Source: a virus (taxonomy: Duplodnaviria > Heunggongvirae > Uroviricota > Caudoviricetes). Taken from it: DNA of 9,304 bases. Below the pieces are notes generated by a model. It searched no databases, was not told the DNA's origin, and saw only the letters and a list, made by a program, of their open reading frames with translations. Below, piece by piece: positions 1-9,304 of the stretch. Both the position numbers and the translations under genes were made by a program. The first letter of the stretch is position 1; the number at the start of each line of letters is the position of its first letter. Where the stretch lies: the IMG/VR virus record IMGVR_UViG_2671180603_000009, positions 1-9,304 of that record, one strand, 5' to 3'.

Positions 1-131
1 GGAGTGTCCGTTAAACTCAGGCTACCTCATACAGTGGGTAAACTTGTTTATCGGTGCTCATTGTTTTTTAACCTCAACTCAGATTAAAATTACTGCGAGT
101 GATGAATAAATGTCCCAGGTTCTTCACTCAG

Positions 132-161
132 GCCTGCACAGTGTGCAGGCTTTCTTTTTTT
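132..161 (+). terminator. Rho-independent terminator-like hairpin followed by T-run
   Basis: Perfect 8-bp inverted repeat GCCTGCAC (132-139) / GTGCAGGC (143-150) with 3-nt loop, then tttcttttttt (151-161). T-run is on the plus strand, so it would stop rightward transcription running into the minus-strand gene that ends at 161. Confidence 0.5.
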
Positions 162-436
162 CAGATTTCACCTTTTAATTTCATTGCAATCAGAGTTGCC
201 AGAAATTCGGCTTTTTTTTCTGCGGGCAGATTCTTTCCTATGTGCACCAGACACATTTTTTTTACACCATCGTTAAGTGTTTTAACGTTGCCTGATGGAC
301 CGTCGATATCAACCACAGTGAATGGGGTTTCTTTATTTTCTGTCTTAATCACGTAGCCAATACGCTTTCCTTCCAGATTAACCTCGTGAACAATGTCATC
401 AGTAGTTACAACAGTGGCTTCATAACTGGTAATCAT
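161..436 (-). CDS. hypothetical prophage protein (91 aa)
   Basis: ORF track 161-484; start chosen at internal ATG 436 (MITSYEAT...) because it is preceded by AAGGAG at 6-7 nt spacing. No family recognised. Confidence 0.65.
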   Translation of the reverse strand: MITSYEATVVTTDDIVHEVNLEGKRIGYVIKTENKETPFTVVDIDGPSGNVKTLNDGVKKMCLVHIGKNLPAEKKAEFLATLIAMKLKGEI

Positions 437-469
437 GTTTTTCTCCTTAATTAAGGTTGAGCGAACCCC

Positions 470-483
470 TGCCATTGCTGGCA
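470..483 (-). other. conserved hairpin at cassette boundary (GCAA tetraloop on minus strand); second copy at 1281-1294
   Basis: TGCCA-ttgc-TGGCA on plus, i.e. UGCCA-GCAA-UGGCA on minus; identical sequence at 1281-1294 downstream of each small-peptide gene. No U-run follows, so not called a terminator. Confidence 0.35.
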
Positions 484-520
484 TATAAGAATGAAACCGG
501 ATATTTATTACGGAACTGTT

Positions 521-712
521 TTAAAGACCTGCCGGGATTTCGTTATTATCATGGTGAATAACTTTATCGACCGGATAACAGTCACCGGGAATTTTCTGTT
601 TCGCTGCGGCAGTCATACATTCTTTCATTGAGCTGTATACGCCAGTAACCATGTCAACCGGTTCACCGGAAACAAGAAAAACCGTCAGAACGAGTGCAAA
701 TACTGTATTCAT
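521..712 (-). CDS. small putative secreted peptide, 63 aa (cassette copy 1)
   Basis: ORF track 521-766; start taken at ATG 712 (MNTVFALVLTVFLVSG...), which gives a hydrophobic signal-peptide-like N-terminus and an ATGA overlap with the stop of the upstream ORF at 709; two conserved Cys in the mature part; paralog at 1332-1523. Confidence 0.55.
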   Translation of the reverse strand: MNTVFALVLTVFLVSGEPVDMVTGVYSSMKECMTAAAKQKIPGDCYPVDKVIHHDNNEIPAGL

Positions 713-897
713 TGTGCACATCCTTTTGGCATCAGACGTAAACGAGCCAGCATTGAAACAATGCATATTTTATTTAATAGCTCCCGTTCGTGTTTTCTCT
801 TGTTAATGGCATCTTCAGTAAATACAGGGTTACTGATAGTGACACCAATTTCAAAACAACCTTCAGACGTATTAACGTTTGGTAATAACGTCTCCAT
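709..897 (-). CDS. hypothetical 62-aa protein (cassette copy 1)
   Basis: ORF 709-897; ATG 897 preceded by GAGGA at 7 nt; stop overlaps start of the peptide gene (ATGA); ~90% identical paralog at 1520-1708. Confidence 0.5.
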   Translation of the reverse strand: METLLPNVNTSEGCFEIGVTISNPVFTEDAINKRKHERELLNKICIVSMLARLRLMPKGCAQ

Positions 898-907
898 TAT
901 TGCGTCC

Positions 908-1238
908 TCAACAATGAATTTTGAGTAATTGTTCCACAGTCATATTTTTAATTGCGCCCCGGTTAACAAGAGTCCATCCCTGTTTTTCCAGATAAAACCG
1001 GAAAGTCTCCAGGGGACAGACCAGTGCGCCATCAGGAACGGTTTCGGTGAATTCGACATTGCCGAATTTGTCGAAGTGAACAACCAGGGTGCGGCCATCG
1101 CCTGGAATTATTTTGTCAGTGGGTGGGGTGTTATTCTGGCGCAGTTCGGCCTCCATGCGATCGAACTCAGCAATGTAGGCTTCTTTGAATGCGGCGGNNN
1201 NNNNNNNNNNNGGCGGCGCAAATAAAGACTTTACTCAT
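908..1238 (-). CDS. standalone homolog of the C-terminal domain of the Rha-like protein, interrupted by N-run 1198-1211
   Basis: Translation 908-1197 (...AAFKEAYIAEFDRMEAELRQNNTPP...LLKIHC) is ~92% identical to the C-terminal ~95 aa of the 1719-2276 protein. A candidate start ATG at 1238 (MSKVFICAA, GAGG upstream) lies beyond the N-run; frame across the Ns cannot be verified. Confidence 0.45.
1198..1211. other. run of 14 N (assembly gap or masked bases) inside a coding region
   Basis: Literal n characters; flanked on both sides by GCGGCGG-like sequence. Confidence 0.95.
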
Positions 1239-1331
1239 TTTGTTTTAACCTCATTACAGATTTAAGGGTGAACAAATCCCTGCCATTGCTGGCATATAAA
1301 AATGAAACCGGATATTTATTACGTGGCTGCT

Positions 1332-1523
1332 TTAAAGACCTGCCGGGACTTCTTTATTATCCTGGTGAATGATTTTATCAACCGGATAACAGTTACCGGG
1401 AATTTTCTGTTCAGCTGCAGCAGCCACGCATTCTTTCATGGAGTTGTATACTCCGGTAACCAGTTCAGCTGGTTCGCCCGTATTAAGAATAACGGTCAGA
1501 ACGAGTGCAAATGCTGTATTCAT
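1332..1523 (-). CDS. small putative secreted peptide, 63 aa (cassette copy 2)
   Basis: Start ATG 1523 (MNTAFALVLTVILNTG...), ATGA overlap with upstream ORF; ~75% aa identity to the 521-712 product. Confidence 0.55.
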   Translation of the reverse strand: MNTAFALVLTVILNTGEPAELVTGVYNSMKECVAAAAEQKIPGNCYPVDKIIHQDNKEVPAGL

Positions 1524-1708
1524 CGCCAGCATCCTTTTTGCATCAGACGCAAACGAGCCAGCATTGAAACAATGCATATTTTATTTAATGACTCCCGTTC
1601 GTGTTTTCTCTTGTTAATGGCATCTTCAGTAAATACCGTGTTACTGATAGTGACACCAATTTCAAAACAACCTTCAGTCGTATTAACGTTTGGTAATAAC
1701 GTTTCCAT
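1520..1708 (-). CDS. hypothetical 62-aa protein (cassette copy 2)
   Basis: ATG 1708 preceded by GAGGA (overlapping the rha stop codon); paralog of 709-897. Confidence 0.5.
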   Translation of the reverse strand: METLLPNVNTTEGCFEIGVTISNTVFTEDAINKRKHERESLNKICIVSMLARLRLMQKGCWR

Positions 1709-1718
1709 TATCGCGTCC

Positions 1719-2276
1719 TCAACAATGAATTTTGAGTAATTGCTCTACAGTCATATTTTTAATTGCGCCCCGGTTAACAAGAGTCCATCCCTGTTCTTCC
1801 AGATAAAACCGGAAAGTCTCCATGGTACAGACCCGTGCGCCATCAGGAACGGTTTCGGTGAATCTGATGTTGCCGCGTTCGTCGAAGTGAACAACCAGGG
1901 TGCGGCCATCGCCTGGAATTATTTTGTCAGTGGGTGGGGTGTTATTCTGGCGCAGTTCGGCCTCCATGCGATCGAACTCAGCAATGTAGGCTTCTTTAAA
2001 TGCAGCGGCTTTTTTGCCAGTGAATCCCATCACCAGGAAAACGAAGCCGTTTTTGGTGATTTGGTACATCGGGCGTTTTTCGCCTTTGGCGTCAGTGTAG
2101 GTGACGTCCTCAAAATTGAGGGCGTTAAATTCAGGTGAGCATTCAGTATTTGCGATGGCACGTAACACATTGTCGTGACGCTTGCCAAAGAACTCTGCGA
2201 TCGCAATAGACGTAGTGACAGCGCGACCATTTTCGATGGTTACGTCAGGGTGAGAAAGGGCAGGGATAGTAGCCAT
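1719..2276 (-). CDS. rha: Rha-family phage regulatory protein (185 aa)
   Basis: Start ATG 2276-2274 preceded by GAGGA at 7 nt. Translation contains the Rha-family signature as I recall it (...IAEFFGKRHDNVLRAI...FVFLVMGFTGKKAAAFKEAYIAEFDRMEAEL). ORF track extends to 2573 but that upstream extension is not accepted as coding. Confidence 0.8.
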   Translation of the reverse strand: MATIPALSHPDVTIENGRAVTTSIAIAEFFGKRHDNVLRAIANTECSPEFNALNFEDVTYTDAKGEKRPMYQITKNGFVFLVMGFTGKKAAAFKEAYIAEFDRMEAELRQNNTPPTDKIIPGDGRTLVVHFDERGNIRFTETVPDGARVCTMETFRFYLEEQGWTLVNRGAIKNMTVEQLLKIHC

Positions 2277-2316
2277 GATGGCATCCTCGAGTGATAAGTT
2301 AATTAACTCACCACCG

Positions 2317-2729
2317 AGGTTTTCCACGACCATAAGGGTGGTGTGACGTACAGGGGTGGAAATACCGGTCACTCGAGAACCCGGCCAGTCTTGCGACTGC
2401 CCTGCACATCCCACCATAATTTGAATGGAGCTGTGCATTACGCATAAAAAAACCGCTTCAGCGCGGCTATGCGCTCGAGTAACGTTCGGGTTTCCACGCC
2501 CGGCACCCGTTTTATAAGGTGCAGGTGCACTATAATTCCACCCGTTCTGGTTTTCAATAGCTACATTCAACATTTTCTCTTTCCTTTCATCACCGAAGTG
2601 AACTTTGTTGATGCGGTGCCTGGTGCCTCCAGGTGACGTTAACCAGTTAACAATTAACGCCGGATACAGGGAAACCCATAACCACCCGATACGGGGGAAC
2701 TAATCGCTTTTTAACTGTGCCGCGTGCGC
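2317..2729. repeat. copy 1 of a ~413-nt tandemly duplicated non-coding element immediately upstream of rha
   Basis: Aligns base for base with 2731-3143 (about 32 differences, ~92% identity); hairpin-rich; see findings. Confidence 0.9.
2446..2469 (-). terminator. terminator-like hairpin plus U7 within element copy 1
   Basis: Plus strand aaaaaaa (2446-2452) followed by ACCGC-ttcag-(c)GCGG; on the minus strand this is a GC hairpin followed by seven U. Stem is short (4-5 bp). Confidence 0.35.
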
Positions 2730-2730
2730 N

Positions 2731-3143
2731 AGGTTTTCCACGACCATAAGGGTGGTGAGACGTACAGGGGTGGAAATACCGGTCATCACGGAACCCGGCC
2801 AGTCTTGCGACTGCCCCGCACGCCCCACCATAATTTGAATGTGGCTGTGCATTACGCATAAAAAAACCGCCTGAGCGCGGTTATGCGCCGTGAATGACTT
2901 CGGGGTAGCAATCCCGGCACCCGTTTTATGAGGTGCAGGTGCACTATAATTCCACCCGTTCTGGTTTTCAATAGCTACATTCAACATTTTCTCTCACCTT
3001 TCATCACCGAAGTGAATTTTGTTGATGCGGTGCCTGGTGCCTCCAGGTGACGTTAACCAGTTAACAATTAACGCCGGATACAGGGAAACCCATAACCACC
3101 CGATACGGGGGAACTAATCGCTTTTTAACTGTGCCGCGTGCGC
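2731..3143. repeat. copy 2 of the ~413-nt tandemly duplicated element
   Basis: See 2317-2729; a single n at 2730 sits exactly at the junction of the two copies. Confidence 0.9.
2860..2883 (-). terminator. terminator-like hairpin plus U7 within element copy 2
   Basis: Plus strand aaaaaaa (2860-2866) then ACCGC-ctgag-(c)GCGGT; minus strand reads as a hairpin followed by U7. Confidence 0.35.
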
Positions 3144-3177
3144 TGAGCCGCATTCACCGCATCACAAAATTCACTTT

Positions 3178-3218
3178 AAAAAGGGCGGACATCAGCCAGC
3201 AATGAAACTGATGCCGCC
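3178..3218 (-). terminator. candidate Rho-independent terminator on the minus strand
   Basis: GGCGGACATCAG (3184-3195) pairs with CTGATGCCGCC (3208-3218), 11 bp with one bulge and a 12-nt loop; on the minus strand the hairpin is followed by CCCUUUUUAAA (plus a-run 3178-3182). Confidence 0.4.
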
Positions 3219-3418
3219 AAAGGTACCAATCAACATGGAGTGTTGTGGCGTGGTTGTCACTTAAGCGTATGGTCAACCTGACAACCCGGTGTCCTCAACG
3301 GGGAAGGAATAACTCCGCCATACTTACCGCCGCGTCATTTCGCGTTGTGTGCCTGCTTTTAACCACGTCAGGCGAGGTGGTATCCTTCTTATCCCGAATA
3401 ACCAAGAAGGAAATCTAT

Positions 3419-3619
3419 ATGACTAAAGAAGAATTTGTCTCTTATATTTTTGATAAAACGGTTGAAATGTATGCCGCTACTTACGGGTCCTGTAATCCTC
3501 TGAATAAACCAGAGGGAAAAGATGATTTCGACAAAATTTACCGCTTCTTGGAGGACCGCTATATCAAAAGCTTAGAGGACGCAGGGATCAAATCCCCAGT
3601 GAAGTCACCATTGTCCTGA
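3419..3619 (+). CDS. hypothetical small protein (66 aa), the only plus-strand gene in the left arm
   Basis: ATG 3419 preceded by AAGGAA at ~7 nt; the ORF track start at 3245 uses an alternative start with no RBS and is rejected; 3' end overlaps the convergent gene 3588-3965 by 32 bp. Confidence 0.5.
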   Translation: MTKEEFVSYIFDKTVEMYAATYGSCNPLNKPEGKDDFDKIYRFLEDRYIKSLEDAGIKSPVKSPLS

Positions 3620-3965
3620 GAACTTGCAGAACGTCATGATCATAACTTCCATCCAAACCGCGACGGCGAATTGCTTCTCGTATTACCGGAAGCAGTTCGC
3701 TGGAAATCTCGGTGCATATTTCACCTGATAATACGCTTGGCTCAAGTGAGAATATTGGTGAACTTACGGTCTTGGTCTCGACAGTTTCAGAGTCAGTGCC
3801 AACATTATAAAGCTCAACGAAAGCGGTCTTGATTTTCCGGGCCAGATCTTTTGCTGGCTCGCTTGCAATATCTTTCCCGATTTCTCGCAGCACAGAATGC
3901 AATGTATGAGCTGCTGTTTTCTGTACATCAGACGGTAAATCTTTAAATTCCATCGTCAGCCTCAT
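3588..3965 (-). CDS. hypothetical protein (125 aa; 121 aa if started at ATG 3953)
   Basis: ATG 3965 overlaps the stop of the upstream gene (TGATG coupling); alternative ATG at 3953 has GAGG 6 nt upstream. No family recognised. Confidence 0.6.
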   Translation of the reverse strand: MRLTMEFKDLPSDVQKTAAHTLHSVLREIGKDIASEPAKDLARKIKTAFVELYNVGTDSETVETKTVSSPIFSLEPSVLSGEICTEISSELLPVIREAIRRRGLDGSYDHDVLQVLRTMVTSLGI

Positions 3966-4117
3966 CAGTCAGTGTTTCTGGCTAACCAGCAACGCGCGCC
4001 AGATTCGGTTTTAAACGTTTTGCTTTTGGTATACGTCATGGCGGTAAACGTTCCATCCTGGTTAGGGAACACGCCGCACACCAGAGATTCGTTGTTGCCA
4101 AGATCGATAGTATCCAT
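3965..4117 (-). CDS. hypothetical small protein (50 aa; 68 aa if started at 4171)
   Basis: ORF track 3965-4171; ATG 4117 (MDTIDLG...) has GAGGT 5 nt upstream whereas ATG 4171 has no obvious RBS. First gene downstream of the operator-controlled leftward promoter. Confidence 0.45.
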   Translation of the reverse strand: MDTIDLGNNESLVCGVFPNQDGTFTAMTYTKSKTFKTESGARCWLARNTD

Positions 4118-4296
4118 GCTGACCTCATTTCCCCTTAACGCCGGGGTGGCGGAACAAAAAACCTGCTGCATAGTTAAAGATTGAACCCTGCCGTCATGTT
4201 CTTACGCCTCGGGCTGGCTACTTAACCCCTGACCACTGTCTGGTAACTCGAAGTATTGCCCTGCATTCTGTGGGGCGGGGTGGGTTGACGCCTGAA

Positions 4297-4338
4297 AAAA
4301 TAGCATCATTATTTTTTGATGTAAATAGCATCGCTATT
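4297..4338 (-). promoter_or_regulatory. leftward early promoter (PL-like) overlapped by two repressor-operator-like inverted repeats
   Basis: Minus strand reads TTTACA (plus 4320-4325), 17-bp spacer, TATTTT (plus 4297-4302). Inverted repeats AATAG-N5-(C/T)TATT at 4299-4313 and 4324-4338, centres 25 bp apart, overlap the -10 and -35; same motif recurs at 5434-5473. Confidence 0.5.
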
Positions 4339-4350
4339 GTTTTTGTTGGG

Positions 4351-4377
4351 GCAAGAAAAAACCACCCTAAGGTGGTT
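4351..4377 (-). terminator. Rho-independent terminator downstream of the toxin gene
   Basis: AACCACC-ctaa-GGTGGTT (4360-4377) preceded on plus by an A-run (4356-4361); on the minus strand this is a 7-bp stem followed by UUUUUUC, 17 nt after the stop at 4394. Confidence 0.6.
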
Positions 4378-4393
4378 CTGTCGGCGGGAATAA

Positions 4394-4684
4394 TTAACTG
4401 TTTTTGCCTGGATACTGTCTTCGAGAATGCACAATATTTACTACTTCTATGCTTGATGCTGTTACTCGGTAAAGGATGATGTAGTTAGGATGAGTTACAA
4501 TTTCACGAAGACCAAGAACTCGCTCGCTTGGAGGATACAGGTAAGGATGCTCTGTGAGCGGCAAAACGGATGTTTCAATTCGAATTTTCATTCTGCGTGC
4601 TGCCGCGGGATTTTCTTTAGCTATGTAGGCTACGATCTGGCGCAAATCATCACGAGCAGATGGTAGCCATAAAACGGGTAACAT
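4394..4684 (-). CDS. parE: ParE/RelE-superfamily toxin (96 aa)
   Basis: Translation MLPVLWLPSARDDLRQIVAYI...HPYLYPP...LREIVTHPNYIILYRV...VVNIVHSRRQYP matches my recollection of ParE-type toxins; start overlaps the stop of the upstream antitoxin gene (TAATG). Confidence 0.8.
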   Translation of the reverse strand: MLPVLWLPSARDDLRQIVAYIAKENPAAARRMKIRIETSVLPLTEHPYLYPPSERVLGLREIVTHPNYIILYRVTASSIEVVNIVHSRRQYPGKNS

Positions 4685-4878
4685 TATTCACCTCTGTGAG
4701 TTGCAGCAGCAATTTGGGCAATAATTTGTTCCATTTCCGCCATTACCTCATCATGCGGAATCGCCGGGCGGGGATCCGCGAGGCTTGCTGCTACTTTGGC
4801 CCGCAGCCATTCGTTGTAACTATTTTCTTGCTCAACTGTCTCAAATTCTGAAACCATTGGGGAAAGGACTGTACTCAT
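4684..4878 (-). CDS. small antitoxin (64 aa), likely PaaA/ParD-like partner of the ParE toxin
   Basis: Small acidic protein directly upstream of and translationally coupled to the toxin gene; AGGAG-like RBS about 12 nt upstream of ATG 4878. Resemblance to the PaaA2 antitoxin of E. coli O157 is from memory and unverified. Confidence 0.65.
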   Translation of the reverse strand: MSTVLSPMVSEFETVEQENSYNEWLRAKVAASLADPRPAIPHDEVMAEMEQIIAQIAAATHRGE

Positions 4879-4897
4879 TTTACATATCTCCTCTGAT

Positions 4898-5398
4898 TTA
4901 GGCGCGACGGCCTTTTTGTGCAGCTAACCACCGCGCAACCGTACGATCCATTGATTCTTTTTTATCTTTCATCTCCTGAAGCATGTGTTCTTGATCTTCT
5001 TTCGGAAAAGCTCTGAACGTATGGATTAAATCTCGTTCCATCGGCTCTACGGCAAACGGTAGTTCATCCTCTGTTTGTTCTGTGTCTGCTGGTAATGCGA
5101 CTATGTTATCTTGCTGTGGTTCTCGACAATACATCCTTGCAATTTGCAGCAAATCTACCATGTCTGGCCTGATTGACTCAGGGGGAACTTTCAGTAAGCC
5201 AGCAAACTTTAGAACAGCCTCAAGGTTTAGTGGGGTTTGACCATTTAGGTAGTGACTTACCGCCCCTTGTGTTGAAAACCCCATAATTTCCGCCGCACGT
5301 TCCTGAGTCAATCCCAACTGAGATTTCTTTGCCATCCAGATTTCTTTCAGTCTTCTGGCGGCGTTGAGGTCGGTGTCTGACAATGATTTTCTTTTCAT
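4898..5398 (-). CDS. HTH (XRE-family) transcriptional repressor, RacR/PaaR-like, 166 aa
   Basis: ORF track 4898-5428 (GTG start); ATG 5398 (MKRKSLSDT...) preferred. HTH-like segment LGLTQERAAEIMGFSTQGAVSHYLNGQ; acidic C-terminus with no recognisable S24 peptidase (LexA-like) motif; divergent from the Cro-like gene and 19 nt upstream of the antitoxin gene. Confidence 0.75.
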   Translation of the reverse strand: MKRKSLSDTDLNAARRLKEIWMAKKSQLGLTQERAAEIMGFSTQGAVSHYLNGQTPLNLEAVLKFAGLLKVPPESIRPDMVDLLQIARMYCREPQQDNIVALPADTEQTEDELPFAVEPMERDLIHTFRAFPKEDQEHMLQEMKDKKESMDRTVARWLAAQKGRRA

Positions 5399-5405
5399 AC
5401 ATCCA

Positions 5406-5475
5406 ATTCTAATAAGATTGCTAATCACTTTGAAATAGCATCACTATTTACTTTTAAAAATAACAGTGCTATTAA
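5406..5475. promoter_or_regulatory. divergent promoter/operator region (OR-like)
   Basis: Inverted repeats AATAG-catca-CTATT (5434-5448) and AATAA-cagtg-CTATT (5459-5473), centres 25 bp apart, plus weaker AATAA-gattg-CTAAT (5411-5425). Plus-strand TTTACT (5447-5452), 17 bp, TATTAA (5470-5475) upstream of the Cro-like gene; minus-strand TTTCAA/18 bp/TAGAAT (plus 5406-5411) just upstream of the repressor ATG. Confidence 0.5.
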
Positions 5476-5509
5476 TTATGCATTGGTAACACATCACATA
5501 GGGCGGATT

Positions 5510-5773
5510 ATGAATCTTGGAGAATATTTGCATCATTTTCATATAACCCAGAGTTCATTTGCTGAGATTGTTGGCGCATCCCAAGGGATGGTCAGCCACG
5601 TTATAACGGGGCGTGCAAAACTTACAGGAGAAAAAATATTACGTTGGTGTGAAGCAACGGGATGGGTGGTGACCCCACATGAGATTGACAGTAAAACCTA
5701 CCCCAACCCAACTGACGGCTTGCCTGCTGAGTTTCAGGCTAACACACAACCATCGGCGGGGGTTGATTCATGA
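5510..5773 (+). CDS. Cro-like / YdaS-family HTH protein (87 aa)
   Basis: ATG 5510 (MNLGEYL...); ORF track start 5483 is a TTG. HTH-like TQSSFAEIVGASQGMVSHVITGRAK; first rightward gene divergent from the repressor; stop overlaps next gene (ATGA at 5770-5773). Confidence 0.7.
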   Translation: MNLGEYLHHFHITQSSFAEIVGASQGMVSHVITGRAKLTGEKILRWCEATGWVVTPHEIDSKTYPNPTDGLPAEFQANTQPSAGVDS

Positions 5774-6195
5774 AAATCAAGCATGAACACATCCGCATGG
5801 CGATGAAAGCCTGGGCGCATCCGGACGGTGAAAAAGTTCCGGCAGCTGAAATAACCAGGGTTTATTTCGAACTGGGAATGACGTTTCCGGTTCTGCATAA
5901 CGACAGCAAGCACAACACGCTTTATCTCAACACCCAAAAGATTTTCCGTTGGCTGGATAAAGACACCCCTGACGCTGTTGAAAAAATTCAGGCGTTGTTA
6001 CCTGCGATCGAAAGGGCAATGCCACCTCCGCTGGTGGCTCGAATGCGCAGCCACAGTTCAGCTTATTTTCGGGAACTGGTGGAGACGCATGAACGACTGG
6101 TGAGAGACGCTGATGATTTTGTCGCAGTGGCAATCGCCGGTTTCAATCAGATGAACCGTGGTGGCCCGGCAGGAAATGCTGTGGCAGTACATTGA
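5770..6195 (+). CDS. YdaT-like protein (141 aa)
   Basis: N-terminus MKIKHEHI... and position directly after the Cro-like gene match my recollection of Rac prophage YdaT-family proteins; translationally coupled to the upstream gene. Confidence 0.7.
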   Translation: MKIKHEHIRMAMKAWAHPDGEKVPAAEITRVYFELGMTFPVLHNDSKHNTLYLNTQKIFRWLDKDTPDAVEKIQALLPAIERAMPPPLVARMRSHSSAYFRELVETHERLVRDADDFVAVAIAGFNQMNRGGPAGNAVAVH

Positions 6196-6266
6196 CTGAC
6201 AATAGCCATATCGAATCGCTCCCGGCAACTCGTGAGTAAAAAGATTCGGTATCAGAAGAGGTGAGT

Positions 6267-7331
6267 ATGGCTAACGCCTGGCTCAGATTATGGCATGACA
6301 TGCCAAATGACCCTAAGTGGCGAACAATTGCCAGGGTGTCAGGGCAGCCAATTGCAACAGTGATGGCAGTGTATATCCACCTCCTGGTGAGCGCGTCACG
6401 AAATGTCACGCGAGGTCACATTGATGTCACGACAGAAGATTTGGCAAGTGCGCTCGACGTGACAGAAGAGGTAATTGATTCAATTTTGCAGACGATGCAG
6501 GGGCGGGTACTTGATGGTGATTTAATCACTGGATGGGAAAAACGCCAGGTGCTTAAAGAGGACAACGGCAATATTTCGCAAACCGCAAAATCTCCTGCAG
6601 AGCGCAAGAGGGCGCAGCGAGAGAGGGAAAGAAAGCGGGAACAAAATGGCGATTGTCACGGCGCGTCACGAAATGTCACGCACATGTCACGACGAGTCAC
6701 GACAGATACAGATAAAGATACAGATAAAGAAGATCAAAACACTATGGTCCATGGCGTAAAAAACGCCACGAACCAGGCAGGGGATGTTCAGACCGTCAAT
6801 CCTGGTCAGCCAGCAGGCTCGACACCGGAAGCCGATTCAGCGTATGCGCTGAAAGCCGATTCGGGCGCTGTGCAGCAGGTGATGACCGCAAGGCCGGAGC
6901 AATCACTCCAACTGCAGCAGCCTGAAGCCGATTCCGCCATTCAGCGGGAAGCCGATCGGGTAGCCCCGGAAAACACCGGGCAGCCTGTGGGACGAGTGGA
7001 TTATCCGGATGTGTTCGAACAGGTCTGGCGGGAATACCCGTTGCGTGCCGGGGCAAACCCGAAGAAATCCGCATTCAGTGCCTGGAAGGCCAGATTGCGC
7101 GAGGGGGTGCCACCAGAGACCATGCTGGATGGTGTGAGGCGTTACGCGAGATACCTGGCGGCGACCGGGAAAGCGGGAACGGAATTTGTTCAGCGAGCGA
7201 CGACGTTTTTTGGGCCGGACCGGAATTTTGAAAACCCCTGGTTGCTCCCGGTAAGCGGCACGAACAACCAGCGTTGTGTGAATCATATTTCTGAACCGGA
7301 TACCGAAATTCCGCCGGGATTCAGGGGGTGA
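6267..7331 (+). CDS. phage replication initiator / replisome organizer (O-like, YdaU-type), 354 aa
   Basis: ATG 6267 preceded by AGAGGTGA; N-terminus MANAWLRLWHDMPNDPKWRTIA... is typical of prophage replication proteins as I recall them; iteron-like repeats lie inside the gene; followed 6 nt later by a DnaC-like gene. Confidence 0.8.
   Translation: MANAWLRLWHDMPNDPKWRTIARVSGQPIATVMAVYIHLLVSASRNVTRGHIDVTTEDLASALDVTEEVIDSILQTMQGRVLDGDLITGWEKRQVLKEDNGNISQTAKSPAERKRAQRERERKREQNGDCHGASRNVTHMSRRVTTDTDKDTDKEDQNTMVHGVKNATNQAGDVQTVNPGQPAGSTPEADSAYALKADSGAVQQVMTARPEQSLQLQQPEADSAIQREADRVAPENTGQPVGRVDYPDVFEQVWREYPLRAGANPKKSAFSAWKARLREGVPPETMLDGVRRYARYLAATGKAGTEFVQRATTFFGPDRNFENPWLLPVSGTNNQRCVNHISEPDTEIPPGFRG
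6388..6430. repeat. iteron cluster 1 (four GTCAC(G/A) repeats at ~10-bp spacing)
   Basis: GTCACG at 6392, 6402, 6423 and GTCACA at 6412; the 21-mer gcgcgtcacgaaatgtcacgc (6388-6408) is repeated exactly at 6661-6681. Confidence 0.6.
6654..6728. repeat. iteron cluster 2 (five GTCACG repeats) plus AT-rich 12-bp tandem repeat; candidate replication origin
   Basis: GTCACG at 6655, 6665, 6675, 6686, 6696 (spacing 10/10/11/10), then gatacagataaa x2 (6705-6728). Arrangement resembles phage lambda, whose origin lies inside gene O. Confidence 0.55.
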
Positions 7332-7337
7332 TGTGGC

Positions 7338-8084
7338 ATGAAAAACATTGCGGCAGCCGGGGTTCTTGAACGTATTCACAGACTTGCACCACAGGGGGCG
7401 GTTCCACCGTACCGGACGGTGGAGGAGTGGCGGGAATGGCAACTTGCTGAAGGACGAAAACGCAGCGAGGAGATTAACCGCCAGAATCGCCAGTTGCGGG
7501 TGGAAAAAATCCTGAATCGTTCGGGCATCCAGCCTCTGCACAGCAAATGCTCGTTTGCGAATTATCAGGTGCAGAACGACGGGCAAAAATACGCGCTGAG
7601 CCAGGCCAAATCCATAGCTGACGAACTGATGACCGGGTGCACGAATTTTGTGTTCAGCGGTAAAACCGGCACCGGGAAAAATCACCTTGCAGCGGCGATG
7701 GGTAACTGGCTGATGGCGAAGGGGCGCAGCGTGATTATCGTCACCGTGTCTGATGTCATGAGCGTGTTGCATGACAGCTACGACAACGGCAAATCCGGTG
7801 AAAAATTTTTACAGGAGCTTTGCGGGGTTGATTTGCTGGTCCTGGATGAAATAGGCATTCAGCGGGAGACGAAAAACGAGCAGGTGGTATTGCACCAGAT
7901 AATTGATCGCCGGACAGCATCACTGTGCAGTGTCGGGATGTTAACAAACCTGAATCATGCCGCAATGAGCACGCTTCTTGGTGAGAGGATTATGGACCGC
8001 ATGACCATGAACGGTTGTCGGTGGGTGACGTTTAACTGGGATAGCTGGCGTTCAAATGTCAGCTTTCCGGGAGTTGTGAAGTAA
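7338..8084 (+). CDS. DnaC/IstB-like AAA+ helicase loader (248 aa)
   Basis: Walker A GKTGTGKNHLAAA and Walker B LLVLDEIG visible in the translation; start 6 nt after the initiator stop. Confidence 0.85.
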   Translation: MKNIAAAGVLERIHRLAPQGAVPPYRTVEEWREWQLAEGRKRSEEINRQNRQLRVEKILNRSGIQPLHSKCSFANYQVQNDGQKYALSQAKSIADELMTGCTNFVFSGKTGTGKNHLAAAMGNWLMAKGRSVIIVTVSDVMSVLHDSYDNGKSGEKFLQELCGVDLLVLDEIGIQRETKNEQVVLHQIIDRRTASLCSVGMLTNLNHAAMSTLLGERIMDRMTMNGCRWVTFNWDSWRSNVSFPGVVK

Positions 8085-8105
8085 TTTTTGTTGGAGGATG
8101 TTTTA

Positions 8106-8831
8106 ATGGAAACTGTATTTGACGCACTGAAAGCACTGAAAAGAGCCTCTTCACATGTGGTGGCGTCCCGCCTTGGAATCAGCCGTGAAGATGCGGTCAA
8201 CGAACTGTGGAAACTGAAGCGCCGTGGTGAAGCGGATAACAAGGGTTCGATGTGGTGGCTGATTCAGGCTGGTGAAAGTGAACCAGTGTCACCGGTACCG
8301 AAAGTGACAGCGCAAATGCTGACTGAGGCGATTGAACAACATGGCCCACAAACGGCGGATGAGCTGGCACTGATGTTCGGGATTACCTCCCGCCGGGCGA
8401 ATTCATCGCTGGCCATGGCAATCAGCAAAGGGCGTCTGATTCGCGTGAATCAGGGCGGTAAATTTCGGTACTGCATACCGGGCGCTGATTTACCGGCAGA
8501 GCCGAAAGCCGCATCCATAGCGGAAACGGATGGTAAAGTCTTTCCTCAGCCAGCAGGTGTTGCGTTACCGGTACAGGAAGCTGCAACACAGGAAGAAATT
8601 AAAACAGAAACTGTGGCGGACATTGTGCAGTCGTTGCCATCGTTCACCGAAACGCAAGCGGATGACCTGGTTTTACCATCGCTGCATATGGCAAACCGCG
8701 AACTGCGTCGGGCGAAAAGTCATGTCCAGAAGTGGGAGCGTGTCTGCGCCGCGTTGCGGGAGCTGAACAAGCACCGGGATATTGTTCGACAGATTGTCGA
8801 TTCCTCCGGTCGTATTGTGTCGGAAAAGTGA
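8106..8831 (+). CDS. hypothetical prophage protein with two winged-helix-like repeats (241 aa)
   Basis: ATG 8106 preceded by GGAGGA; ORF track start 8088 is TTG. Two similar N-terminal segments ([10 protein letters not shown]...; [10 protein letters not shown]...), acidic linker, coiled-coil-like C-terminus. Family not verified. Confidence 0.6.
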
Positions 8832-8846
8832 TTGCCGGGGGCGCTT

Positions 8847-9269
8847 ATGGCAAAAGTATTTACACAGGAAGAGCGGGAAAAAATTAAGGGGCAGGTTGTT
8901 GAACTCGTACGCCAGAGTGGGCGCGAGACGTTACGACAACTGGAAGCTAAAACCGGGGCGACAAGATATTTAATAAGCGTTCTCGCCAGAGAGCTGGTTG
9001 CCAGTGGGGATGTATACAACTCTGGCTACGGGTTATTCCCGTCTGAACAGGCTCGTAAGGACTGGCAAAACGCCCGCAAAAAACTCTCGAGGGCAAAGCT
9101 GAAGAAACCATCTGTGGTTGATCCGGACCTTATCTGGTCATTACCAGACGGAGAAATACGCCGCTACGACAGACATCAGAACATAATCTGTCGCGAGTGC
9201 CGGAAGAGTGAAGTTATGCAGCGTGTACCGGCTTTCTATCAGGGTGATTTTCAGGAGGCGGTACTGTGA
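8847..9269 (+). CDS. hypothetical protein (140 aa)
   Basis: ATG 8847 preceded by GGGGG at ~6 nt; ORF track start 8832 is TTG; basic, possibly DNA-binding; no family recognised. Confidence 0.55.
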   Translation: MAKVFTQEEREKIKGQVVELVRQSGRETLRQLEAKTGATRYLISVLARELVASGDVYNSGYGLFPSEQARKDWQNARKKLSRAKLKKPSVVDPDLIWSLPDGEIRRYDRHQNIICRECRKSEVMQRVPAFYQGDFQEAVL

Positions 9270-9304
9270 GTGAAATTAGCTATCAGGCTTCAATTACCGC
9301 TGGC

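Follow-up and report, generated by a model that had tools for sequence, protein, structure and literature searches.

The 9,304-bp stretch of viral DNA analyzed here, referred to below as the window (IMG/VR record IMGVR_UViG_2671180603_000009, positions 1 to 9,304; Caudoviricetes), carries an immunity region organized around a 166-residue repressor encoded on the minus strand (4898-5398). The repressor combines an N-terminal domain (NTD) of the lambda cI type (residues 1-90), a disordered linker (residues 92-111) and a two-helix C-terminal domain (CTD) of the PaaR type (residues 119-165). On the same strand lie the genes for a PaaA2-type antitoxin (4684-4878; Pfam PF21217, E = 3e-23; PaaA2 structure 3ZBE, E = 1.4e-23), which has no DNA-binding domain, and a ParE-family toxin (4394-4684; Pfam PF05016, E = 1.8e-17; ParE2 structure 5CW7, E = 6.7e-37), with the antitoxin stop codon overlapping the toxin start. 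This PaaA-ParE toxin-antitoxin pair, an addition to the sequence-only reading that our analysis follows up, is carried by the immunity operon as cargo. A Cro-like (YdaS-type) helix-turn-helix protein of 87 residues (5510-5773, plus strand) is encoded by the first gene of the rightward operon. The right operator region (OR) comprises the 111 bp that separate the start codons of the repressor gene (ATG 5398) and of cro (ATG 5510) and contains three copies of an inverted repeat (starting at 5411, 5434 and 5459); two further copies (4299 and 4324) overlap a called promoter directly after the terminator of the immunity operon and form the left operator region (OL). The DNA probably derives from Shigella sonnei or Escherichia coli. 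We read the five repeats as the operators of an immunity switch in a lambdoid prophage, and assign this reading, including the mechanism proposed below, a probability of about 0.85.

Four good copies of the motif AATAG-N5-CTATT and a weaker fifth had been described previously, and a motif scan with shuffle controls found all five at the coordinates claimed for them. Of the predicted operators on the left, OL1 (AATAGCATCATTATT, 4299-4313) has one mismatch to the motif and OL2 (AATAGCATCGCTATT, 4324-4338) has none; on the right, OR2 (AATAGCATCACTATT, 5434-5448) is a perfect match, OR1 (AATAACAGTGCTATT, 5459-5473) has one mismatch and the weak operator OR3 (AATAAGATTGCTAAT, 5411-5425) has two. 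With no more than one mismatch allowed, the motif matches the window four times (4299, 4324, 5434 and 5459) against 0.21 matches expected by chance, and 0 of 200 shuffles attained this number. The start-to-start spacing is 25 bp in the left pair and 25 bp in the right pair, as had been claimed, and 23 bp between 5411 and 5434. A repeat search of positions 4200-5600 that made no use of the motif returned as its top match a 40-nt inverted repeat between 4299-4338 and 5434-5473 with 75% complementarity; as this motif-blind search recovers both site pairs, the entire two-site unit is mirrored at the two ends of the region. At two mismatches or fewer there are eight matches in the window versus 3.15 expected, and the count alone is not significant for OR3, which is backed by its conserved position in relatives. 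The motif itself is real and can be refined to a longer 15-bp palindrome of 7-1-7 form, AATAGCA-N-TGCTATT, derived from 62 half-sites in which the outer AATA is invariant, an invariance of AATA/TATT that is overstated by the collection of the sites through pattern matching.

The overlaps between operators and promoters proposed in the sequence-only reading are borne out at all three promoters, by a consensus promoter scan for the leftward promoter (PL) and the repressor promoter and by direct reading for the rightward promoter (PR). The predicted PL (minus strand, 4325->4297) has a -35 element TTTACA (4325-4320), a 17-nt spacer and an extended -10 element TGcTATTTT (hexamer 4302-4297), with a transcription start expected at ~4290-4293. 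The predicted repressor promoter (minus strand, 5434->5406), which resembles the lambda promoter for repressor maintenance (PRM), has a -35 element TTCAAA (5434-5429), a 17-nt spacer and a -10 element TAGAAT (5411-5406) located 7 nt from the ATG at 5398. The predicted PR (plus strand, 5447-5475) has a -35 element TTTACT (5447-5452), a 17-nt spacer and an extended -10 element TGcTATTAA (5467-5475), with a start expected at ~A5482. PL and PR share the same layout: OL1 and OR1 each span the spacer and supply the TG and first four bases of the -10 element, while OL2 and OR2 abut the -35 element and overlap it by two bases. OR2 lies between the -35 elements of PRM and PR, with its center 43 bp from the repressor ATG, and OR3 lies in the PRM spacer, touching the -10 element, with its center 20 bp from the ATG. 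In relatives, the PL position is occupied by TTGACN or TTTACA, a spacer of 17-18 nt and then TGcTATTGT, and PR by TTTACT, TTTACA or TTGACT with a spacer of constantly 17 nt. The intrinsic terminator of the immunity operon (4352-4379, minus strand) consists of a 9-pair stem, a UUAG loop and a following U-run (-15.1 kcal/mol, z = -3.3); it was missed by the scan because its stem runs into the T-run, and most relatives have a hairpin and T-run at the equivalent place.

Protein searches recovered repressors 75-90% identical to that of the window over their full length, repressors with 47% identity in Salmonella diarizonae, and 244-residue variants with an additional helix-turn-helix domain. In all 12 loci compared, two sites 25 bp apart lie directly upstream of the repressor gene, a third and weaker site with an invariant ATTA...TATT frame lies 23-24 bp from OR2, and a second pair, 24-26 bp apart, lies beyond the end of the immunity operon. 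Loci whose repressors are 47-90% identical retain the motif, its spacing and its position at both ends, and the layout persists even though the OL-OR distance spans ~1.0-3.0 kb. In an alignment of the right-hand region from nine loci, the invariant columns are the operator edges, the PRM -10 element and the ATG, and the cro leader varies. In loci of Escherichia coli (L002/L003) and of E. coli O157:H7 (L026), which share the CTD, cargo and flanks of the window and differ from it in the repressor NTD, there is no match to the motif, and these heteroimmune controls have repeats of their own at both ends. The motif search in related prophages that the sequence-only reading had put forward as a check therefore finds the motif, its 25-bp pairing and its placement at both ends in relatives, and other repeats where the NTD is different. 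The recognition helix of the Cro-like protein (SQGMVSHVITGR) follows the same division, being common to all loci of the AATAGCA type and different in the heteroimmune loci, and the Cro-like protein is probably a second binder of these operators.

The same comparison bears on whether the repeats could serve the PaaA-ParE complex for autoregulation, as happens in classical type II systems. They do flank the operon that holds the toxin-antitoxin pair; against this, PaaA2-type antitoxins lack a DNA-binding domain, the both-end layout persists with PaaA-ParE, HigBA, a HipA-like pair, two unknown open reading frames or no cargo at all, and loci with this cargo but another repressor NTD have lost the motif. 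We consider autoregulation by the toxin-antitoxin complex extremely unlikely.

The association between motif and repressor domain was also approached from the opposite direction, by scanning viral contigs with the DNA pattern AATAR-N5-YTATT-N10-AATAR-N5-YTATT and no protein information. This reverse scan found at least 119 viral loci; among the matches listed, 47 encode an NTD of the repressor type (28-100% identity, contig GC content 0.38-0.64), and all 55 of their motif pairs are confined to two places, 34-82 bp upstream of codon 1 (mode 56 bp, identical to the window) and 0.5-2.4 kb downstream of it, with none farther upstream. The other 71 loci among the matches listed have a mean GC content of 0.31, include many giant-virus contigs and look like the chance matches expected of an AT-rich pattern. 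Such matches, together with the weak folding of the repeat regions as RNA (-7 to -9 kcal/mol), are what could be said for reading the repeats as RNA hairpins or AT-rich palindromes that arose by chance and bind no protein. Four sites where 0.21 are expected, in positions conserved across diverged loci, leave this explanation barely credible. The RNA-structure version was rejected in its own right, because folding is weak and because the PL and PR transcripts, with their predicted starts downstream of the sites, would not contain them.

A further alternative is that the repeats are bound by the Cro-like protein or another factor only, and that the 166-residue repressor recognizes different DNA. 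Co-variation with the motif is as good for the recognition helix of Cro as for the repressor domain, and computation cannot separate the two binders. The reverse scan, however, finds the repressor NTD in at least 47 loci, some of them with no detectable Cro homologue; the (T/S)QG start of the recognition helix is kept among these relatives down to 28% identity; and in lambda and in prophage CP-933P (Sp12) of E. coli O157:H7 the repressor and Cro share their sites. A repressor that ignores the repeats is very unlikely on this evidence, and recognition by the repressor remains the preferred reading.

The function of OR3 is less firmly supported than that of the other four sites. If its conservation reflected the needs of the promoter only, there would be two sites on each side and no negative autoregulation through OR3. 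Matches with two mismatches occur about three times per window by chance, OR3 coincides in part with the PRM spacer and touches the -10 element, and there is no third site at OL. Nevertheless, its left half, ATTAG, falls within the promoter spacer, which is indifferent to sequence, yet ATTA is invariant in nine diverged loci; OR3 also keeps a distance of 23-24 bp to OR2 and an operator-like ATTA-N7-TATT frame, and its center lies 20 bp from the ATG where that of lambda OR3 lies at 19 bp. We regard a non-functional OR3 as doubtful, while giving it more weight than any other alternative to the proposed switch.

The sequence-only reading had likened the operator logic to that of lambda; for the repressor, the likeness holds in its DNA-binding domain and not in the protein as a whole. 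Against the lambda cI DNA-binding domain (1LMB), phmmer gave E = 2.9e-9; identity to lambda cI in this domain is 37-40%. In the AlphaFold model of the repressor (mean predicted local distance difference test score, pLDDT, 78) the NTD superimposes on lambda cI NTD structures with template modeling (TM) scores of 0.81-0.93 and root-mean-square deviations of 1.1-2.0 Å (Foldseek). Up to residue 80-90 the repressor is truly homologous to the NTD of lambda cI. An S24 peptidase (LexA-like) domain was not found in the repressor, for which Pfam gives HTH_3 and HTH_31 only, and a fold search of the PDB with the CTD, two helices in the model, returned no match. Over its last 44 residues the repressor shares 52% identity with the PaaR2 C-terminus (BLASTP, E = 4e-15), the PaaR2 sequence having been read from a CP-933P-type contig (L150) recovered via the ParE2 sequence, and the CTD is 56% identical over 64 residues to a second PaaR of O157:H7. 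To judge from these similarities, the protein is a natural hybrid in which a lambda-type DNA-binding domain is joined to a PaaR-type CTD. Since the CTD is not of the S24 LexA-like kind, RecA-stimulated self-cleavage is not expected; the locus is lambda-like at its operators, and its induction must differ from that of lambda. Searching the window for LexA boxes (CTGT-N8-ACAG, one mismatch or fewer) gave five matches versus 2.9 expected, none convincing and none a clue to SOS control. In lambda cI, E34 and D38 are residues of the positive-control patch that touches region 4 of sigma. Repressor residues E33 and E37 align with these two positions in the 1LMB alignment, and it is plausible that the repressor promoter is activated from OR2.

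The start of the repressor gene was assigned to the ATG at 5398 on several grounds. The product of this ATG aligns with lambda cI from its second residue onward, which supports this ATG as the start codon, and RefSeq places the repressor start at the same ATG in a 99%-identical locus (L001). The gap between the -10 element and the ATG is 6-7 nt in nine diverged loci, its length kept and its sequence varying, and so leaves no room for a Shine-Dalgarno sequence. The same geometry occurs at CP-933P paaR2 (GATAAT, 6 nt, ATG), whose mRNA was found to be leaderless by 5' RACE (rapid amplification of cDNA ends) and N-terminal sequencing (Jurenas et al., 2021; PMC8630535). The idea of a leaderless message, offered as speculative in the sequence-only reading, gains support from the conserved gap and from the paaR2 geometry, and the repressor mRNA probably starts at the A of ATG 5398 or within 1-2 bases of it. 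The message would instead carry a leader if transcription started upstream, or if translation began at the in-frame GTG at 5428 to give an N-terminally extended product. The program-made list of open reading frames does begin the repressor at GTG 5428, some database entries have N-terminal extensions (P0001, 178 residues; P0020), and a transcript from an upstream promoter resembling the lambda promoter for repressor establishment (PRE), through the YdaT site described below, would have a leader. GTG 5428 is, however, not kept, being GAG in loci of the L012 type, and the cI alignment, the RefSeq annotation, the short gap of variable sequence and the experimentally leaderless paaR2 all speak for ATG 5398. 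We think a leadered message unlikely.

Sites, geometry, homology and the co-variation of site and binding domain are observations; from them we infer where transcription starts and that protein binding, cooperativity, looping and activation take place, in the following scheme. A repressor dimer most likely binds the 15-bp AATAGCA-N-TGCTATT palindrome via its lambda-cI-type helix-turn-helix domain with its N-terminal arm. The 25-bp pairs would act from identical positions on two outward-facing promoters, PL for the leftward early genes and PR for the cro-like, CII-like and replication genes; with O1 lying over the extended -10 element and O2 against the -35 element, occupancy of a pair would shut the promoter. 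From OR2 at ~-43 and OR3 at ~-20 of the repressor promoter, low levels of repressor would activate its synthesis and high levels would repress it, as in lambda, and the Cro-like protein would probably compete for the repressor's sites. The helical CTD shared with PaaR2 probably provides cooperativity within pairs and possibly looping between OL and OR over ~1.1 kb, and the toxin-antitoxin cargo operon is predicted to end at the terminator just before OL.

Several points weigh against this scheme in addition to the overstated invariance of the consensus. OL shows two evident sites only, where lambda OL has three. OR3, with its two mismatches, overlaps the PRM spacer and -10 element, and promoter constraint may explain part of its conservation. 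PR was not called by the consensus promoter scan, its -10 hexamer TATTAA being imperfect; the scan missed it because its rule demands T at position 6 of the -10 element. The oligomeric state of the CTD would follow from 52% identity over 44 residues, and in CP-933P the footprints have not yet been narrowed to exact binding sequences (PMC8630535). The analogy to lambda OL and OR holds in every part that can be tested computationally, namely the cI-type NTD, the site geometry, its conservation and the co-variation of the Cro helix.

Beyond the cro-like gene, the PR operon encodes a YdaT-family CII-like activator (5770-6195, plus strand; Pfam PF06254; PHROG 163 'CII-like transcriptional activator', E = 3e-40), a replication initiator (6261-7331) and a DnaC-like loader (7338-8084). 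A perfect match to TTGATT-N6-AATCAA (TTGATTCATGAAAATCAA, 5763-5780, 0 mismatches) straddles the cro stop and ydaT start and is predicted to be a binding site for YdaT (CII-like); it amends the sequence-only reading in that it would indicate a CII/PRE-like second input to repressor synthesis. The first gene of the PL operon encodes a DUF1391/YdfA-like protein (3965-4117, minus strand; Pfam PF07151, E = 3e-28) and is annotated ydfA in L001. The PL leader (~4150-4290) includes the sequence GCCCTGCATTCTGTGGGGC and a CCCACCCCGCCCC tract. About 3,700 of 5,426 complete E. coli genomes have it at 92-96% identity, CP-933P has it too, and this widespread leader might be a nut-like element or a structured 5' untranslated region. 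A plus-strand promoter-like match at 4285-4312 (TTGACG-16-CATTAT) was rejected as likely due to chance, as it is aimed at the terminator and parE antisense and has no gene to serve. Another promoter-like sequence, TTGACT-17-AATTAT, lies within the repressor coding sequence (5311->5283, minus strand) directed at the antitoxin and toxin genes, and may be a chance match or an internal cargo promoter.

Elsewhere in the PL operon, Rfam identifies on the minus strand between 2317 and 3143 two C4 antisense RNAs (2334-2421 and 2748-2835) and two isrK small RNAs (2446-2522 and 2860-2936). A tandem duplication of 414 bp with 91-96% identity contains these copies and lies upstream of the open reading frame of an Ash/Rha-type regulator (1719-2573, minus strand), and a single N at 2730 falls at the duplication junction. 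The region resembles an antirepressor module of the P1 immI kind within the PL operon, and is a candidate inducer for a repressor incapable of self-cleavage. A second duplication, a direct repeat of 300 nt between 451-750 and 1262-1561 (85% identity, 811 bp apart), duplicates several small open reading frames and flanks a gap of 14 N (1198-1211); it could be a true tandem duplication or a scaffolding artifact merging two related prophage copies.

The distribution of the immunity region differs sharply from that of its surroundings. Positions 4280-5520 are present in only 2 of 5,426 complete E. coli genomes, while the left flank (4150-4287) is present in ~3,700, as is classic for the mosaic edge of an immunity region; of the 5,426 genomes, 70 carry a sister type that is 78% identical. 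The window type and this sister type share the recognition helix and the operator consensus, and we therefore predict that they are homoimmune. A DNA-level search of sequenced phages matched the toxin-antitoxin part only, in phage Evi, and no repressor NTD above 60% identity was found in the sequenced-phage collection searched. A scan for the repressor NTD in one genome per species gave no confirmed relative, probably because few exact peptide patterns were used. The operator strings, including AATAG with CTATT, were not found in the open-access literature, where limited coverage makes this weak evidence that the motif is undescribed. The repeats are almost certainly the operators of a lambda-like switch of ordinary arrangement, with a repressor/operator specificity that we have not found described and that would represent a new immunity specificity in a known kind of switch.

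The main value of these results is the correct annotation of a prophage immunity control region, and the understanding of such switches is unchanged. They provide a clean palindromic operator, as predicted here, for a PaaR-type repressor, tie PaaR-type repressors to lambda cI through real sequence homology of the DNA-binding domain, and predict that expression of the ParE toxin-antitoxin cargo is tied to the lysogenic state of the switch. Tentatively, the lambda-type NTD and its operator layout (25-bp AATAG-N5-CTATT pairs at both ends and a deliberately weak third site) could be viewed as a portable specificity cassette, a possibility to which we give less than even odds. Such a cassette appears to be kept from Shigella/E. 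coli to high-GC hosts (contigs with GC content 0.38-0.64), and its CTD may be swapped among a LexA-type cleavable domain, the helical PaaR domain, and a second helix-turn-helix followed by a PaaR domain. If true, this would constitute a natural experiment separating those properties of the lambda switch (cooperativity, looping, inducibility) that are borne by the operators from those borne by the CTD, and the two-domain repressor variants might give immunity to two phage groups at once. Variants of this last kind (P0013-P0023, 243-255 residues; loci L017, L023 and L025) have a window-type NTD, a second helix-turn-helix of the L002/L003 type and a PaaR CTD; these loci have AATAGCA-type sites at OR and OL.

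Comparison with phage lambda reveals close agreement in geometry. The centers of OR3, OR2 and OR1 lie 20, 43 and 68 bp from the A of the repressor ATG in the window and 19, 42 and 66 bp in the lambda record; the OR3-OR2 and OR2-OR1 spacings are 23 and 25 bp here and 23 and 24 bp in lambda. The two systems share a homologous repressor NTD including the N-terminal arm, three sites between divergent PR and PRM, a recurrence of the motif at a distant PL, and a geometry that fits a leaderless repressor mRNA. They differ in the operators, which are 17 bp in lambda and a 15-bp AATAGCA-N-TGCTATT palindrome here; in the CTD, which is S24 LexA-like in lambda and a short helical PaaR domain here; in the accessory regulators, Cro and CII in lambda and YdaS-type and YdaT-type proteins here; and in the OL-OR distance, 2.4 kb in lambda and ~1.1 kb here. 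The slot between repressor gene and OL, whose counterpart in lambda is the position of rexAB, holds variable cargo in L012, L015, L017, L023 and L025 (PaaA-ParE, HigB-HigA, a HipA_2/DUF3037 pair, two unknown open reading frames or none).

Among sequenced phages, the closest NTDs are those of cI from Stx2a-converting phages (Lyz12581Vzw, for example) and of the 'DicA' of Rac-SA53, at 52-57% identity. Both have related recognition helices (TQGAVSQLLN and SQGTVSQYLN) and A[AT]TAG-N5-CTA[AT]T sites 23-25 bp apart upstream of the repressor gene. The flanking sites are more degenerate. The Stx2a-phage cI differs in its LexA-type CTD and in a leader with the Shine-Dalgarno sequence GGAGG. In the Lyz12581Vzw locus (L029, 2389-2500), where the cI NTD is 52% identical, GGAGG lies 10 nt past a -10-like TAAAAT, while all PaaR-type relatives have the leaderless geometry.

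The scanned paaR-paaA-parE locus of O157:H7 (L026/L027) lacks the window motif. Its ParE is, by eye, closer to that of the window than ParE2 is, and it shares the repressor start geometry (TAAAAT, 6 nt, ATG) and the presence of repeats at both ends; its NTD (MMSALEVSMYRIS...) and its repeats (AAAAACTGT...ACAGTTTTT) are different. This locus probably corresponds to the homologue on CP-933M that Hallez et al. (2010) named.

The nearest characterized system is CP-933P (Jurenas et al., 2021, PMC8630535; Prolic-Kalinsek et al., 2023, PMC9986795). In this prophage PaaR2 and YdaS each repress PR, PRM and a PL that has similar operators, their footprints overlap between PRM and PR, PL933P, at the place equivalent to PL in the window, is active, and PaaR2 is octameric in solution (PMC8630535). 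YdaT binds TTGATT-N6-AATCAA at the ydaS/ydaT junction, a site footprinted as OM / PRE933P (PMC9986795). The window matches CP-933P in gene order and operon structure (paaR2-paaA2-parE2 with ydaS-ydaT), in its perfect YdaT site at the same junction, in a homologous PL leader, in the occurrence of one related motif at both OR and OL, and in the 6-7-nt gap between the -10 element and the ATG. PaaR2 has been described as a functional analogue of cI with no sequence similarity to it in the CP-933P work, and the PaaR2 NTD, which starts MQKKE, has no detectable similarity to cI or to the NTD of the window repressor. The operators differ as well: in CP-933P the repeats are of the GTTTAGTAA type and come in two kinds that overlap, where the window has a single clean palindrome, and the regions of L150 that were read show GTTTAGT repeats at OR and OL in place of the window motif. 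As both NTD and operators differ, the window and CP-933P should be heteroimmune, and on these comparisons the window would be another immunity type of the CP-933P architecture.

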